Source: Candidatus Woesearchaeota archaeon (GTDB lineage: Archaea; Nanobdellota; Nanobdellia; Woesearchaeales; WJIZ01). From it: DNA of 55,448 nt. The translations under genes and the position numbers were made by a program. The DNA lies in the NCBI GenBank assembly GCA_018303125.1, contig JAGVYS010000004.1:1-55448 (forward strand). The letters run 5' to 3'. Below the pieces are notes generated by a model. It searched no databases. It had not been told where the DNA came from and saw nothing but the letters and a program-made list of their open reading frames with translations. Positions 18,840 to 54,917 of the stretch are shown here, piece after piece; the stretch's first letter is position 1, and the number at the start of each line of letters is the position of its first letter.

Positions 18840-19280
18840 ATGAGCCTGAGAAAGCATTCTATATGGATAGTTTCTGCAACTGTTTTTTTTTTGAGCGTAA
18901 TTCTCAGGTATACATTTATCGGATTCCTGCAGCCGGGCCAATCTGTGCCTGTAATAAATGGGATTATTCATTTTACCCTTGTCTTCAATAATGGCGCAGG
19001 CTTTGGCCTCCTGAAGGGCTATAGAATCCTGCTTATTTTTTTCTCAGTGGCAGCACTAGCTGCAATAGCTTACTACTGGAAAAAAATACCCGATAGTTAT
19101 AATACAATGATTCCTATAGGGTTAATAACAGGCGGCATATTAGGCAACTTGCTTGAGAGAATCTCTCTCGGACATGTTGTAGACTACATTGATTTCAGGT
19201 TTTGGCCAGTATTCAACATTGCGGATTCCGCTATAAGCATTGGCGTAATATGGCTAATAATTTACCTCTGGGGCAAATAG
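18840..19280 (+). CDS. lspA: Lipoprotein signal peptidase (signal peptidase II, peptidase A8)
   Basis: NNGAGFG, GGILGNLLER, GHVVDYID and PVFNIADS keep both catalytic Asp; 4 TM segments. Confidence 0.9.
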   Translation: MSLRKHSIWIVSATVFFLSVILRYTFIGFLQPGQSVPVINGIIHFTLVFNNGAGFGLLKGYRILLIFFSVAALAAIAYYWKKIPDSYNTMIPIGLITGGILGNLLERISLGHVVDYIDFRFWPVFNIADSAISIGVIWLIIYLWGK

Positions 19281-26586: not shown

Positions 26587-27167
26587 TGAATTCAGGCATA
26601 GGAAGTTACCAGATGAAGAGATTTCTCAAGCACCTTTGCGTAGTTTCCAAAAGGTATTACGAGCGTGAGCAGGCAAGGAAGAAGTTTGATGTCCAGCTGA
26701 AGAAGGTAACCAAGTCACCAAATATTGATTCTGAGCTTGCTTTGCTCAACAGGAAAGTATCTTTGCTCCTTGATGCCGAGGCAAAAGTTGCTTCCCTTGG
26801 CAAGGATAAGGGCACTCCTGCTGCAGTAAAGCGCAGGCTGAAAATAATGGAAGAGAAGCTTTCATGGACAGAATCTGAGAGGGATTTGCTTGCAAGGCAG
26901 AACGAAAGCCTGATGAATGCCCTTACATCAGCATGGAAAATGTCTGAGGGATCAAGCGATGAAAGCATAGAGGAAAAGCTGGAAGAGCTAAAGTTAAGCT
27001 CTGAAAAGGACCATAAAGAGTTTGTTATAAAGGACATGAAAGGAAAAATAAGGCTTCTTGAAGACAGCTATCAGGAAATAAGGAAGGACAAATCAGTAAG
27101 CAAAGACAGGCTTGCTGCGATAAAGAACAAGCTTGAATCATACAAGGAAACGCTCGAAAACTTATAA
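26583..27167 (+). CDS. Hypothetical coiled-coil protein
   Basis: ATGA overlap with the upstream gene; K/E-rich helices. Confidence 0.7.
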   Translation: MMNSGIGSYQMKRFLKHLCVVSKRYYEREQARKKFDVQLKKVTKSPNIDSELALLNRKVSLLLDAEAKVASLGKDKGTPAAVKRRLKIMEEKLSWTESERDLLARQNESLMNALTSAWKMSEGSSDESIEEKLEELKLSSEKDHKEFVIKDMKGKIRLLEDSYQEIRKDKSVSKDRLAAIKNKLESYKETLENL

Positions 27168-27344
27168 GTCCTTGGGCATGACTGTTGTCCTGCCGTTAAG
27201 CACTGCCCTTTTGCATGCCTCTGCAATTATACCTTCAACTTTCTTTGTAAGCTCAGCTGAAAGGTCTGAGGCAACATTGAGCTGCTTTCCCTCATGCTTT
27301 GCCAGTTCCTTTACCCTTGAAACAACGATAAGTGTTTTTGCCAT
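27162..27344 (-). CDS. Histone-fold protein with truncated alpha-3 helix
   Basis: IVVSRVKELAK, L1 NVASD, long alpha-2 ending ACKRAVLNG, and L2 RTTVMPKDL with the R...D clamp. Confidence 0.8.
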   Translation of the reverse strand: MAKTLIVVSRVKELAKHEGKQLNVASDLSAELTKKVEGIIAEACKRAVLNGRTTVMPKDL

Positions 27345-27466
27345 AAATCCACTCTATAAGGCCTGGCATTTAAAAATTTATGGTATGTGCCATCTGTTTT
27401 GAATGTGAATTATACAGCAATCACTTTAATTTGGCAAAAAGTATTTAAGCCATTAATCTGATTGAT

Positions 27467-27871
27467 TTGCATATGGATTGGAATAAATTTTTCAAACCGG
27501 ATATACCTAAAATTGCAATATTTGTGCTCTTAGTTTTGATATTCGGCGTGCCGGCAACATCTAGAGATTGCCAGACATATGTTAAAACATCAACACCCCC
27601 TCCATGCATAGAAAAATTTACTTTCTCGAATGTTATTATTGATGCATTAGGCCTTACAAGATATCCTTATGTATTGGATGCTGCCACTTATTTTTCATAT
27701 AATCCATCCGTAGTCATATTTTATCTCACTGGATTATATGTTAGTTTATCTTCAATTTTCCATATTGCAGATTATAATTGGAAAAAAGCCTCACTTTATA
27801 CTGTAACAGCCATATTACTGACACTCTTGATTACCATTCTATTTTCTGTAATGAAGAATAGAGCATTTTAA
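27467..27871 (+). CDS. Small membrane protein
   Basis: Three hydrophobic segments; AT-rich codon usage. Confidence 0.6.
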   Translation: MHMDWNKFFKPDIPKIAIFVLLVLIFGVPATSRDCQTYVKTSTPPPCIEKFTFSNVIIDALGLTRYPYVLDAATYFSYNPSVVIFYLTGLYVSLSSIFHIADYNWKKASLYTVTAILLTLLITILFSVMKNRAF

Positions 27872-27945
27872 ATCTATATTACGGTAGGTATAGGATAGAA
27901 TTAAAGTCTATTCACTTTTGAAAACATTTTTTGTTTCTCTTGTTT

Positions 27946-28151
27946 GAGGATTATGCACTGCAATCCCGTCAATAGTCGACCTGAGTATCCTAGAGTGTAA
28001 AATCAGTTATAAGGTCACTAAGGAGTGAATCGGTCGTTTAGCGACGGCAGATATGGTGGATTAGAAAATGCGCTGTAGCTACACTTGGCTACGCTTCCTA
28101 AGGCGAAAACTTAGGGCGTGGAAAACAAAACACGCGAAGTAATAATCTCGC
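27946..28151 (+). ncRNA. Candidate structured non-coding RNA (~205 nt), family unidentified
   Basis: GC-richer island with no credible ORF. At least seven nested helices, a 5'/3' closing helix, a 6-7 bp loop-loop pairing, and a T tract directly downstream. Confidence 0.65.
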
Positions 28152-28165
28152 TTTTTTTATTTTTT
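28152..28165 (+). terminator. Oligo-T archaeal-type terminator after the candidate ncRNA
   Basis: TTTTTTTATTTTTT immediately after the closing helix. Confidence 0.5.
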
Positions 28166-28205
28166 AATCGAAAAATTTAAATAGTATATCTCAGTTATAC
28201 TAATT

Positions 28206-28757
28206 ATGGCAAGTCCTAGTAAAGAAGAAAATGTATTAAAGCTAATTTTAGAAAATAGTCCTCTAAAAGAATGGCATTTTGAAGAAATAGTTAGAGAAGC
28301 AAAAATTACAAAATTAGTGGCGAATAAATGGCTTAAAAAATATGTATCTGAGGGATTACTTAAACATATTAAAGAAAAAAAGAAATTTCCACATTTTACA
28401 GTAGGAATCAATAATTCTGTTTATTATTCTCTCAAAAGAGTTTACGCTTTGGAGCAACTTCATAAAAGTGGACTTATTCCCAAACTTTTATCTCTCAAAA
28501 CAGCCAAGACAATCATATTATTTGGAAGCATCATAAAAGGTGACTGGTATAAAGATTCAGATATCGATATTTTTATTTTCGGAGATATTTCTGATTTTGA
28601 CAAAAACATTTATGAACTTAAACTGCACACTAACATAGAACTACATATCTTCCAAAACAAAGAAGAAATGGACGAAGTCAAAACAGGACTTATAAGAAAT
28701 ATAGTCAACGGGTATGTTATAAAAGGACAGATTCAAGACTTTGCCGAGGTTGCATAA
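28206..28757 (+). CDS. HTH-MNT minimal nucleotidyltransferase (putative antitoxin)
   Basis: N-terminal HTH (WHFEEIVREAKITKLVANKWL), then LFGSIIKGDWYKDSDIDIFI (GS...DxD). Confidence 0.85.
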   Translation: MASPSKEENVLKLILENSPLKEWHFEEIVREAKITKLVANKWLKKYVSEGLLKHIKEKKKFPHFTVGINNSVYYSLKRVYALEQLHKSGLIPKLLSLKTAKTIILFGSIIKGDWYKDSDIDIFIFGDISDFDKNIYELKLHTNIELHIFQNKEEMDEVKTGLIRNIVNGYVIKGQIQDFAEVA

Positions 28758-29231
28758 ATGAAACTTACAATTGATAATCTTGATAAAACATACAAACTCT
28801 GCACGAGCACAGGAAGCATAAAGGAAAAGTCTATAGATATTGAACTTATAAAATCATTAAAGATTGTCGCAGAAAAAGGTCTTGAATTCATCAACAGCAA
28901 ATCAAAAGATATTCCCAAAGATAGTACAGATTGGACATTTGTCTTTCGAGACCATTATGAATCACTCCGAGGATTAATAGAAGCTTATCTATTATTTGGC
29001 GGAATTGTAGCAGATAATCATCAATGCAAAAATGCATACATTTGCTTCAAACATTCAGAACTAGAACTTGACTGGGAATTCCTAGAAACAATCAGACTAA
29101 AAAGAAATGCAATCAATTATAGAGGACAATTATTGAAATATGATGATTGGAAAATGCTTAAATTGAAATTTGAATTACACATTAGTGCACTAAAAGAAAA
29201 AATTGGAAAAAAACTTGAAAAAGATTTATAA
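28758..29231 (+). CDS. HEPN-domain protein (putative toxin)
   Basis: Abuts the MNT gene; all-helical; HYESLRGLIEA and RNAINY (R-x4-Y variant of the HEPN motif). Confidence 0.75.
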   Translation: MKLTIDNLDKTYKLCTSTGSIKEKSIDIELIKSLKIVAEKGLEFINSKSKDIPKDSTDWTFVFRDHYESLRGLIEAYLLFGGIVADNHQCKNAYICFKHSELELDWEFLETIRLKRNAINYRGQLLKYDDWKMLKLKFELHISALKEKIGKKLEKDL

Positions 29232-29265
29232 ATATGCATTTATATAATGATATAAAAGCAAAATT

Positions 29266-30243
29266 CTAAACTATTTCAGAAGCTGCCTTCCTCAGCCTAT
29301 TCATTATTGCTATTCCAATTCCTTTCTCTTCAACGCCCTCAACCAGAATGACATCTACTTTCTCCTCCAGCTCCCTGAAAAGCGCAAATATGCTCCTGGC
29401 ATACTCATGCAATGAGTTCCCTGCATGCCTCGCCTCATCAGCCCTGAAACTGTGGTAAATTGATATTACCCCGACCTTCTTGCTTTTCATGAGCCTGTCA
29501 GCATATTCCTGGATTGCCTTTTTCCTGCCTGTGAACAATATTACTTTTGCAGAGGGCGCATAATGCCTGTATTTCATGCCCGGTGATTTATTTGTAGATG
29601 CTGTGCTGATTTCAACTCTTCCTATTACTTTTTCAATCTCTTCCTTGGTTATGCCTCCTGGCCGGAGAATTTCAGAAGTGGAAGCATCTACAACCGTAGA
29701 CTCAAGGCCAATTCTTGACTTTCCGCCATCAACTATTGCGTCTACTCTTCCCATGAAATCACTGATGACATGCTCTGCTGTTGTCGATGATGGCCTCCCT
29801 GAGATATTTGCAGATGGCGCCGCTATTGGTATGCCTGCTTCTTTTAGGATTGCCTGTGCTACTTTGTGTTTAGGCATCCTTATTGCGACAGTCTCCAGGC
29901 CGCCGCTCGTGGCATAAGGCACAATTCCTGTTTTATTCATTATAAGCGTAAGCGGCCCTGGAAAAAAAGCATCTATCAGCTTCTTCTCCTTTTCAGAAAT
30001 GCCTGATACAAGTATAGGCAATTGCCTCTTACTGCCTATATGCACAATAAGCGGATTATCAGATGGCCTTCCTTTGGCCTTGAAGACTTTTTCAACTGCA
30101 TCCTCGTCAAAGGCATTGCATCCCAGGCCATAGACAGTTTCGGTTGGAAAAGCAACAACCTTTCCCTGCGAAAGAAGCTGTGCTGCCCTCCTTATCTTTG
30201 CCTTCTCAGGCATTGAAGGATTAACTTTTATAATCTCAGTCAT
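29266..30243 (-). CDS. sua5: Threonylcarbamoyl-AMP synthase (YrdC + Sua5 domains)
   Basis: VAFPTETVYGLG, KGRPSDNPLIVH, AAPSANISGRPS, ESTVVD, SPGMKYRHYAP. Confidence 0.95.
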   Translation of the reverse strand: MTEIIKVNPSMPEKAKIRRAAQLLSQGKVVAFPTETVYGLGCNAFDEDAVEKVFKAKGRPSDNPLIVHIGSKRQLPILVSGISEKEKKLIDAFFPGPLTLIMNKTGIVPYATSGGLETVAIRMPKHKVAQAILKEAGIPIAAPSANISGRPSSTTAEHVISDFMGRVDAIVDGGKSRIGLESTVVDASTSEILRPGGITKEEIEKVIGRVEISTASTNKSPGMKYRHYAPSAKVILFTGRKKAIQEYADRLMKSKKVGVISIYHSFRADEARHAGNSLHEYARSIFALFRELEEKVDVILVEGVEEKGIGIAIMNRLRKAASEIV

Positions 30244-54107: not shown

Positions 54108-54917
54108 ATGGAGATTGACATACCCAAAAGGCCCCATCCGAACATGGAGCATTACAGCGGCGAAGAGTATGAGATAGCCTCCAAGTTTGCAAGGGAAATA
54201 TACAAGGAGATGGGCAAGTATATCAAAGCAATAGTTCTCTTTGGCTCATCAGCTAGAAAAACAACTAAGCCGCATTCAGATGTCGATGTCCTTATCCTAA
54301 TGGATGACCTTTCCATTGTTCTTACTAGAGATGTTGCGGATGCTTACAGGATAGCCATACAGAACATAATTGCAAAGATATCAAAGAGGCTCCATGTAGT
54401 GACATTGAGAATAACCTCCTTCTGGGAGTACATGAGGAATGGCGACCCTATAGGGATAAATATACTAAGGGATGGAGTCTCTCTCTATGACTCTGGTTTC
54501 TTTGACCCTTTGCAGATATTGCTGAAGAAGGGAAGAATAAGGCCGTCAAGGGAAAGCATCTGGTCATATTACCTCAAGGCAATGCCCACTCTCAATAATG
54601 CTAAGTGGCATGTCCTTCAGGCAACAATAGACATCTACTGGGCTGTAATTGATGCTGCCCATGCAGCGCTAATGAGCCAGAACACTATTCCTCCCACTCC
54701 GGAGCATGTTGCTGACATGCTGGATGAAGTCTTGGTAAACAAAGGCCTTCTGGAAAAGAGATATTCCAAGATAATGAGAAACTGCTATGACAGGGCAAAA
54801 GCGATAATGCACAAGGAGATCCAGGAAGTATCGGGAAAGGACTTTGATTCTTACCTTAAAGAAGGCTTCGAGTTCATTGAGAGAATGAAAAGGTTTATAG
54901 ATATTAAAGTAAATTAA
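54108..54917 (+). CDS. MNT nucleotidyltransferase-HEPN fusion protein
   Basis: LFGSSAR...SDVDVLI, followed by a helical HEPN-like half (DIYWAVIDAAHAALM; RAKAIMH). Confidence 0.8.
   Translation: MEIDIPKRPHPNMEHYSGEEYEIASKFAREIYKEMGKYIKAIVLFGSSARKTTKPHSDVDVLILMDDLSIVLTRDVADAYRIAIQNIIAKISKRLHVVTLRITSFWEYMRNGDPIGINILRDGVSLYDSGFFDPLQILLKKGRIRPSRESIWSYYLKAMPTLNNAKWHVLQATIDIYWAVIDAAHAALMSQNTIPPTPEHVADMLDEVLVNKGLLEKRYSKIMRNCYDRAKAIMHKEIQEVSGKDFDSYLKEGFEFIERMKRFIDIKVN

Follow-up and report, generated by a model that had tools for sequence, protein, structure and literature searches.

The locus and its composition

The locus described here spans positions 27,467 to 29,231 of a 55,448-nucleotide stretch of Candidatus Woesearchaeota DNA (GenBank assembly GCA_018303125.1, contig JAGVYS010000004.1), which is referred to as the window and is contig C40 of genome G000 (1.35 Mb, 41% GC). 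Its parts are a small membrane protein gene (27467..27871), a structured RNA within the intergenic stretch 27872-28205, a gene for a protein with a helix-turn-helix (HTH) domain and a minimal nucleotidyltransferase (MNT) domain (28206..28757), and a gene for a HEPN-fold protein (28758..29231). A first-pass annotation of this DNA had read the arrangement as an AT-rich island carrying a candidate RNA-linked toxin-antitoxin (TA) or defence module. The open reading frame (ORF) list places the membrane protein ORF, the RNA stretch, the HTH-MNT gene and the HEPN-like gene each on the + strand, in agreement with that annotation. The block 27345-29265 has a GC content of 0.311, compared with 0.419 for the window and 0.414 for the genome. 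A sliding GC profile gives 0.28-0.34 over ~27300-29250 and 0.41-0.46 on both flanks, which upholds the earlier description of a block that is AT-richer than its surroundings (31% vs 42% GC). The RNA stretch alone has a GC content of 0.419 and is not AT-rich. These values support the block as a compositionally foreign island.

The HTH-MNT and HEPN proteins

The HTH-MNT protein (28206..28757, + strand, 183 aa) was identified by Pfam, NCBIfam, PADLOC and motif evidence and features an N-terminal winged-helix-like domain followed by the minimal nucleotidyltransferase. The latter matches Pfam NTP_transf_2 (1.5e-8) and Polbeta (1.1e-8), and the catalytic motif hG[GS]-x9-13-Dh[DE] is found as GS-x10-DxD (GSIIKGDWYKDSDID). 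The NCBIfam MntA model matches at 1.5e-5 with a score below its cut-off (24.8 vs 60 bits), and PADLOC PDC-M05A matches residues 7-153 with an E-value of 6.9e-11. The N-terminal HTH is related to Sta1/Lrs14 in NCBIfam. The protein is presumed to be the antitoxin and an autoregulator.

The second gene (28758..29231, + strand) begins with an ATG directly after the MNT stop codon, so that the two genes abut and the HEPN-fold partner lies immediately downstream of the MNT. It encodes a 157-aa protein of the AF0298-like HEPN-T type, an assignment based on a fold search and on conserved residues. The protein itself has no direct match in Pfam, NCBIfam or PADLOC; three of the 51 family members match PF05168 HEPN, the best at 1.1e-3. 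Sequence and profile searches against the PDB gave no useful match either, and the fold search alone was successful. The AlphaFold2 model has a pLDDT of 97.5, and its top Foldseek match is the AF_0298 HEPN structure 2hsb (prob 1.0, E 0.013), followed by the toxins of HEPN-MNT complexes 7ae9, 7ae6, 5yep, 6m6u and 8xeh. The E-values of these matches are modest (0.013-1, none at or below 0.001) and the TM-scores are 0.5-0.65.

The R-x4-Y motif that had been noticed in the abutting gene is present as R116-N-A-I-N-Y121. Conserved residues are R113, R116, N117, Y121, G123 and the N87-H88 pair, of which R113 is kept in 47, R116 in 40, Y121 in 39 and H88 in 40 of the 51 family members. The canonical R-x4-H(-x-Y) motif was not found, since Tyr occupies the His position in 39/51 members and His does not rank in the top five residues at this site. 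According to PMC3710099, AF0298-like HEPN-T proteins are typically without the His of R-x4-6-H, but another conserved His precedes the motif on its N-terminal side and might provide an alternative active site. The window protein agrees with this: the motif Arg is kept, the His is absent, and an alternative conserved His (H88) lies N-terminal. With the canonical motif missing, the genes are best filed as an HTH-MNT / AF0298-like HEPN-T pair. The domain matches and the fold support the earlier view that this is an MNT-HEPN pair of the toxin-antitoxin/defence type, in which the HEPN protein is presumed to be the toxin.

Type VII HepT/MntA systems include Shewanella SO_3165/SO_3166 and Aphanizomenon HEPN/MNT, with structures in PDB entries 5yep, 6m6u, 7ae8 and 7ae9. 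The window pair shares with these systems the bicistronic, abutting MNT-then-HEPN order, the GS-x10-DxD motif in MNT, the structural HEPN fold match and the format of a small, mobile, AT-rich cassette. However, the window HEPN has R-x4-Y in place of R-x4-H-x-Y, and the MNT carries the extra N-terminal HTH and falls short of the MntA model. Most likely, the pair works like a type VII HepT/MntA system. AF0298-like HEPN-T proteins (2hsb) provide the best structural match and resemble the window protein in the kept Arg, the lost His, the N-terminal His and the association with an MNT gene. The window protein differs from them in being too divergent for direct Pfam HEPN detection and, in its predicted structure, the 157-aa chain would have an extra N-terminal helix and small beta elements. 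While the HTH-MNT matches PDC-M05A of the PADLOC candidate system PDC-M05, its partner protein matches no PADLOC model.

The MNT-HEPN cassette and its promoter

The region 28166..28205 (+ strand) was delimited as the cassette promoter by a left boundary of conservation that is common to nine loci with otherwise unrelated upstream DNA. It contains a B recognition element (BRE) and TATA box, AATCGAAAAATTTAAATA, at 28166-28183, and an inverted repeat, AGTATA-N7-TATACT, at 28183-28201, both on the + strand. The inverted repeat is likely the operator that the HTH domain binds. The start of the MNT gene is near-leaderless with respect to this promoter. The TATA-like sequence noticed earlier before the HTH-MNT start is TTTAAATA at 28176-28183, 22 nt 5' of the MNT ATG, and the suggestion that the pair has its own promoter is also supported, as the BRE/TATA lies at the conserved boundary of the cassette.

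The cassette is ~1.07 kb long (28166-29231). Conservation in the nine loci runs from ~45 nt before the MNT ATG (AATCGAAAnnTTTAAATA, then AGTATA-N7-TATACT) to the HEPN stop codon. The cassette has 30-34% GC in hosts with 42-48% local GC, and its nucleotide identity across families is 83%. For the 157-aa HEPN-like protein there are >600 homologue clusters. Identity is 83% or higher in each of the best 120, which all come from Woesearchaeota/Nanoarchaeota and are labelled 'hypothetical', and hundreds of DPANN assemblies carry the cassette. The window-type pair was sampled in six independent genomic contexts, and these were searched for the RNA element with the covariance-model filters switched off. 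The element is absent from five of them, in which the upstream gaps are 110-230 nt, and is present only at the G173/AR3-type tandem locus. Among the 17 nucleotidyltransferase (NTase) matches in G000, one has the RNA. The MNT-HEPN pair is a self-contained, horizontally spreading cassette. The HTH-MNT / AF0298-like-HEPN cassette is abundant and highly conserved, and its HEPN side goes unrecognised by current libraries; it is well suited to testing the idea of an 'alternative histidine' active site in HEPN proteins.

Several RNA-less relatives were noted. The pair at G000:C42:2775-3768 is of the MNT-HEPN type and, like the window pair, with which it shares 50% and 38% identity, is AT-rich (0.334). 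Another MNT-HEPN-type pair, at G000:C36:18844-20578, stands beside a Fic-like gene. One RNA-less copy of the cassette is preceded, two genes upstream, by a gene for a reverse transcriptase (RVT_1, 400 aa; L142:142-1344) and has an intein/LAGLIDADG-bearing CDC48 gene nearby.

The RNA copy in the window

The structured RNA in the window is a 5'-truncated copy of a conserved element at 28008..28165 (+ strand), as determined by BLAST, covariance models and covariation. Its parts, all on the + strand, are the hairpins P2 (28015-28028), P3 (28033-28048), P4 (28075-28092) and P5 (28091-28119), a terminal hairpin (28134-28151) and a T-tract (28152-28165). The folded RNA had been placed at 27946-28151; conservation and covariation uphold ~28003-28165, while the 5' third has no homologues in 400 genomes. 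BLAST homology to relatives begins at query position 79, which is window position 28008, and from there on the identity is 81-92% in six genomes from other families of the same order. The window copy scores 182 bits with covariance model R1 and 81.3 bits with model R3 at 28091-28155, where it is among the top matches.

The family's conserved 3' block is kept in the window copy, with P5 and its GCGAAAA loop, the terminal hairpin and the T-tract. The loop of the terminal hairpin is GUAAU where the family has GUAAC, and one stem pair is weakened. The conserved 5' block (TWTATAAAT-GTTTCG-seg1-seg2-U/A tract-seg3), which ~55/62 copies have, is missing, and the TATAAAT and GTTTCG... block is missing from the aligned row L032. 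Its place is taken by 136 nt of homologue-free DNA, an AT-rich, window-specific spacer at 27872..28007 (+ strand) with a T6 run at ~27926-27931. BLAST of 27872-28010 against the 400 genomes of the order returned only 20-45-nt low-complexity matches, on both strands.

Minimum free energy z-scores are modest (-2.9 on the + strand, -2.1 on the - strand). Covariation is found in P5, which is 87% paired and has 5-6 compensatory pairs compared with ~2 in shuffles (0/500), with slid controls far lower. On the + strand, G.U outnumber A.C pairs in P5 by 39 to 5 in one register and by 11 to 7 in the other. This G.U excess, together with the T-tract, supports an RNA read from the + strand. Rfam 15 gave no match at gathering or permissive thresholds, the best permissive one being LOOT with 15 bits against a gathering threshold of 46, and literature searches found no earlier description of the RNA element. 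The earlier call of a structured RNA was borne out: the RNA is a conserved, covarying element outside all Rfam families, and neither Rfam nor the searched literature contains this family. A divergent RNase P or SRP RNA was considered and rejected because both are encoded elsewhere in G000 and its relatives. Likewise, a housekeeping RNA was rejected because the element occurs in 7-11% of the genomes of the order and in 0/6 same-family genomes. TRF found no tandem repeats in 27850-28210, and a search around the window insertion turned up neither flanking direct repeats nor a target-site duplication.

The element family in Woesearchaeota

A first covariance model was built from four copies and searched over 401 genomes of the order. 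The element was found in 37/401 genomes and in none of the six same-family genomes, and several genomes hold 2-3 copies within a few kb. Separate block models detected the 5' block in 44/401 and the 3' block in 28/401 genomes. A pattern scan of 185,579 species genomes placed the element almost only in Woesearchaeota and other DPANN metagenome-assembled genomes (MAGs), and the carriers of related sequences are nearly all Candidatus Woesearchaeota MAGs. Scans of IMG/VR gave no match, which is limited evidence against a viral origin because the patterns used were exact.

The family features a very conserved 5' block, a variable middle and a conserved 3' block. The 5' block starts exactly at a TATA box (TWTATAAAT-GTTTCG-...). 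The 3' block consists of P5, a CCUAAG-GCGAAAA-CUUAGG hairpin whose stem is extended, followed by a terminal hairpin whose loop is GUAAC and by T7-A-T6. Global RNAalifold over all subfamilies was uninformative; the alignment is too heterogeneous for it, and the helices were therefore tested block by block. In the 5' block, the seg2-seg3 pairing is 84% paired and has 38 double-change cells compared with 19.5 in shuffles (0/500), and the alternative seg2-seg1 pairing has 20 compared with 9.5 (0/500). Neither pairing is biased towards G.U (19 vs 20 and 18 vs 41). The long-range helix P1, formed by a 5' U-tract with GAAA(A/G)UGC, is plausible in two subfamilies and not in others.

Read on the minus strand, the 5' block gives CGAAAC-ATTTATAWA, a canonical BRE+TATA that faces the upstream gene. 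That gene is divergent in 46/56 loci and starts ~23 nt from the TATA box, and seg1 lies only a few nt past the TATA box. These features suggest that the 5' block is mainly promoter/operator DNA and that the RNA proper would be the downstream part.

Copies that consist of the 5' block only stand straight before operons or cassettes. A conserved three-gene operon (~90, ~60 and ~160 aa) lies right behind such copies in 5-7 genomes of other Woesearchaeota (L112:228-1100, L074:4524-5700, L083, L086, L066, L113), and its products (c1, c7, c5) have no Pfam or PHROG match. This operon may be the core of a mobile element that owns the promoter/operator. G000 itself holds a second family element at G000:C35:18952-19317, which has the 5' block only (18952-19006, 60 bits) and a divergent gene 32 nt upstream. 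The cassette behind it has its own TTCGAAAGATTTATATA promoter and encodes an ATPase-like protein (MENRTFYDRKQEIKLL...GRRRVGKTE), and the contig ends ~310 nt after the block. The possibility that this 5' block is the missing half of the window RNA was rejected, as it is a separate element with its own cargo.

Cargo and neighbours of the element

Neighbours were counted for 62 unique copies, and the downstream gene was scored for 47 of these; the locus in G328 was added later. The first downstream gene is co-oriented in 39/47, and its start is usually 45-70 nt past the T-tract. An NTase/HEPN pair follows seven of the 47 scored copies, the eighth being that in G328. Unrelated, non-NTase cargo stands behind about 85% of the RNA copies (39/47 scored). 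The covariance model and the neighbour tabulation had been proposed as a check on the RNA-linked module, and they show the RNA copies mostly in other contexts.

The HTH-NTase and HEPN-like pairs behind the element (G000, G052, two in G173, G204, G250, G342 and G328) belong to three sequence families. The other cargo comprises Bro-N/Ant-like genes (phrog_15286; 4 loci), Fic (2 loci), restriction-modification (R-M) genes (about 4 loci), AbrB/RelE (1 locus) and, at single or few loci, ribbon-helix-helix (RHH) proteins, UvrD, M48 peptidase, LemA, DUF1697/DUF1801, a multi-HTH/HNH-repeat protein and others. Domain counts for the first gene are NTP_transf_2 5, Bro-N 4, Fic 2, C5 MTase 2 and M48 2, with NgoPII, N6_N4 MTase, UvrD and LemA also present. 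The genes upstream of the element copies are unrelated to each other. Tandem [element-cargo][element-cargo] arrays occur in G173, G113, G327 and G036.

The NTase background was taken from 282 matches in 24 element-bearing genomes (~29.7 Mb), and the NTase share was estimated at ~1% of genes on the assumption of about one gene per 0.9 kb. About 3% of the NTase genes have the element upstream.

A short motif, CCACnnnCCACTGGACA(A/T), lies just past the T-tract in G031, G059 and G019 (L003/L006/L007), where the cargo is Bro-N (two) and R-M (one); the window lacks this motif. A gene for a Y1 transposase of the IS200/IS605 type (PF01797) is found at L126:5509-5982 and L128:4042-4515, one to two genes past a tandem [RNA-MNT-HEPN][RNA-MNT'-HEPN'] array on archaeon GW2011_AR3-like contigs.

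The membrane protein gene as probable flank of a variable hot spot

The gene upstream of the RNA (27467..27871, + strand) encodes a 134-aa protein with three long hydrophobic segments. The ORF and its segments agree with the small transmembrane protein annotated before, and the membrane identity is a reading of the sequence. No match was found in Pfam, NCBIfam, PADLOC or PHROG, and the family has 11 homologue clusters only, at 54-79% identity. In the relative L146 a DUF3368/UPF0175 TA pair comes after the membrane protein gene. In the ENA contig L147, which is 100% identical to window 27581-27706, an IS630-like element breaks the gene, and this points to strain-level insertion polymorphism. 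The different TA pair and the IS630-like break suggest that the position is a variable hot spot and that the gene is dispensable. Among the tabulated neighbours of element copies, the membrane protein gene stands next to no other RNA copy, and its relatives share no synteny beyond the gene itself. It is probably the host-side flank of the hot spot and lies outside the cassette. The IS630-like element (DDE_3 + HTH genes) is multi-copy in G000, on contigs C32, C26, C4, C12 and C39.

Origin of the adjacency of RNA and cassette

The window, G052 and G328 feature the same junction, in which the 3' block and T-tract are followed by AAT(C/A)GAAA(A/G)ATTTAAATAG and MNT. Everything 5' of P5 differs among the three: the copy in G052 belongs to another subfamily and that in G328 carries long insertions. 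G173 has a different junction without the 3' block. The common junction suggests that the adjacency was inherited from one ancestral juxtaposition. Since the 3'-block/cassette junction is the same and all that lies 5' of it differs, the RNA fragment is better explained as a hitch-hiking relic than as a functional HEPN partner. We therefore favour, with a probability of roughly 0.7, the reading that the MNT-HEPN cassette and a promoter-less RNA fragment lie side by side in a variable hot spot and that the RNA is no third part of the TA system.

The proposed sequence of events can be set out as follows. The variable hot spot would lie downstream of the dispensable membrane protein gene. Full copies of the element have a divergent gene on one side and variable, co-oriented accessory cassettes on the other. 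One ancestral juxtaposition of element and cassette would have been dispersed by horizontal transfers whose breakpoints fell within the RNA. The window would thus have received the cassette together with the promoter-less 3' piece (28008-28165) of its former upstream neighbour, and the fragment would be a hitch-hiking relic that serves at most as an upstream terminator or insulator. The HEPN protein is predicted to be an RNA-targeting toxin in which R116 and the alternative His88 take the place of the canonical R-x4-H. The MNT would neutralise it, probably by nucleotidylylation, and the HTH domain of the MNT would repress the promoter through the inverted repeat.

Several points weigh against this reading. 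The 7-8 NTase adjacencies in 47-48 loci are about 15-fold over the genome-wide NTase background, and the NTase/HEPN pairs after the element come from three different sequence families at eight loci. An excess of ~15-fold makes some functional or positional affinity of the element for NTase/HEPN pairs possible. The window fragment might also be expressed, for instance if transcription of the membrane protein gene runs on into it, and toxicity, AMPylation and operator binding are predictions. It had been suggested that the adjacency could be due to chance. Pure chance does not agree with the 15-fold excess or with the junction common to the window, G052 and G328; the findings fit co-residence in hot spots together with hitch-hiking.

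Possible functions of the element

The TA pair is ordinary and the novelty lies in the RNA element family. As an undescribed RNA/promoter element, it recurs before diverse defence and mobile cargo in DPANN archaea. It is most likely an independent accessory gene for a non-coding RNA (ncRNA) of the mobile-genetic-element type, which has a regulated bidirectional promoter and is co-resident with cassettes in hot spots. After the ncRNA-gene reading, a cis-acting leader ranks next and a recombination or boundary site after that, and under none of these readings is the window fragment a HEPN partner.

A broader proposal is that the ~200-nt element (bidirectional promoter/operator, structured RNA and terminator) is a new organiser of accessory cassettes in Woesearchaeota. 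It would head integron-like arrays of defence, TA, R-M and phage-derived cassettes, either as a capture site or as a regulatory RNA, and the window would hold a decayed unit. We regard this as speculative and rather unlikely. To our knowledge, almost nothing is known about the biology of mobile elements in DPANN archaea, and if the element does organise or regulate cassette arrays, it would open a new way to study how genes move in these episymbiotic archaea. Integron gene-cassette arrays have reportedly been found in Archaea (bioRxiv 10.1101/2022.02.06.479319; PMC9668308). The element resembles integron arrays and tRNA/tmRNA islands in that a conserved non-coding element lies by variable, horizontally acquired TA, defence and R-M cargo, in tandem element-cargo units with a patchy distribution. 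In contrast to integron arrays, it is ~200 nt long and conserved in sequence, starts with a BRE/TATA and ends with a terminator. Inspection by eye found neither the R''(RYYYAAC)/R'(GTTRRRY) cores of attC sites, which are 55-140-nt imperfect palindromes, nor an adjacent integrase in the flanks examined. Unlike the RNA genes of tRNA/tmRNA islands, the element is no housekeeping RNA and is absent from about 90% of the order's genomes.

The element could also be a riboswitch- or attenuator-like leader or expression platform acting in cis, in which the hairpin and T-tract stop or pass transcription that comes from the 5' block through the structured RNA, and thereby gate the downstream cassette. 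Such a role is improbable. It would agree with the co-orientation of the downstream gene and its start usually 45-70 nt past the T-tract, with the mutually exclusive pairings available to seg1, seg2 and seg3, both of which covary, and with the 5'-block-only copies directly before operons. However, the cargo that was examined has its own BRE/TATA right after the T-tract, the 5'-block pairings lack the G.U bias of RNA helices, as expected of symmetry at the DNA level, and seg1 is too near the TATA box to be transcribed from that TATA. In the window, the copy could not act as a leader because its promoter block is absent.

Slightly less probable still is that an integron-like or IS200/605-like cassette system uses the element for recombination or as a boundary, in which case the hairpins would be recognised as DNA and units of element plus cargo would be arrayed. 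The tandem arrays, a patchy distribution like that produced by horizontal gene transfer, the covarying inverted and direct repeats of the 5' block without strand bias, the Y1 (IS200/605 TnpA) gene near the AR3-type arrays and a cargo range like that of integron cassettes are all consistent with such a role. However, the G.U bias of P5 is of the RNA type, the element has an archaeal terminator at its end, inspection shows no attC R''/R' motifs, and the distal end of the cargo is marked by neither a conserved sequence nor a repeat. The ORF lists, judged by eye without a Pfam scan of those ORFs, also show no consistently adjacent recombinase.

The RNA of the window resembles that of type III TA (ToxIN-type) and AbiF-HEPN systems in being a terminator-ended RNA upstream of, and co-oriented with, the operon of a putative RNase toxin. 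It differs from them in that it lacks tandem repeats and a promoter and stands beside a putative MNT protein antitoxin, and RNA and proteins do not co-occur consistently as in an obligate RNA-protein module. That the structured RNA is a functional third component of the MNT-HEPN module, as substrate, cofactor or RNA antitoxin, is the least probable of the functions considered: the RNA lies directly upstream in the same orientation, no other single type of cargo follows the element as often as NTase/HEPN pairs do, the RNA-3'-block/cassette junction is kept in three lineages and RNA-regulated HEPN systems are known, such as AbiF in C. difficile as outlined in PMC12373285, but the RNA is missing from 5/6 independent cassette contexts, about 85% of its copies have unrelated cargo, its retained portion varies among the four loci that share the cassette (with no 3' block in G173), the window copy has no promoter block, 16/17 NTase genes in G000 are without RNA, and the tandem repeats of type III antitoxins are missing. 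The first-pass proposal of such a role is not supported, as homologues of the RNA are mostly found in other contexts and the cassette is mostly RNA-free. The RNA-linked three-part TA architecture can be dropped, which avoids a misleading annotation.

Flanking genes and other observations in the window

The flanks of the island had been assigned to a histone and to sua5. The putative histone gene (27162-27344, minus strand, 60 aa) stands as an ORF, and its family identity has weak support (NCBIfam archaeal histone E = 0.068, 13.6 bits vs a cut-off of 50). The identity of the sua5 gene is solid at the Pfam level. This gene (29266-30243) encodes a 325-aa Sua5 with a Sua5_C domain and has no counterpart in six same-family genomes, which have only a ~194-aa YrdC-type protein like that of the second G000 copy at G000:C38:3350-3853. 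The long Sua5 may reflect acquisition or lineage-specific retention. A further NTP_transf_2 match (E 2.2e-10) lies at 54192-54377 of the window, inside a 274-aa open frame that is probably an MNT-HEPN fusion.

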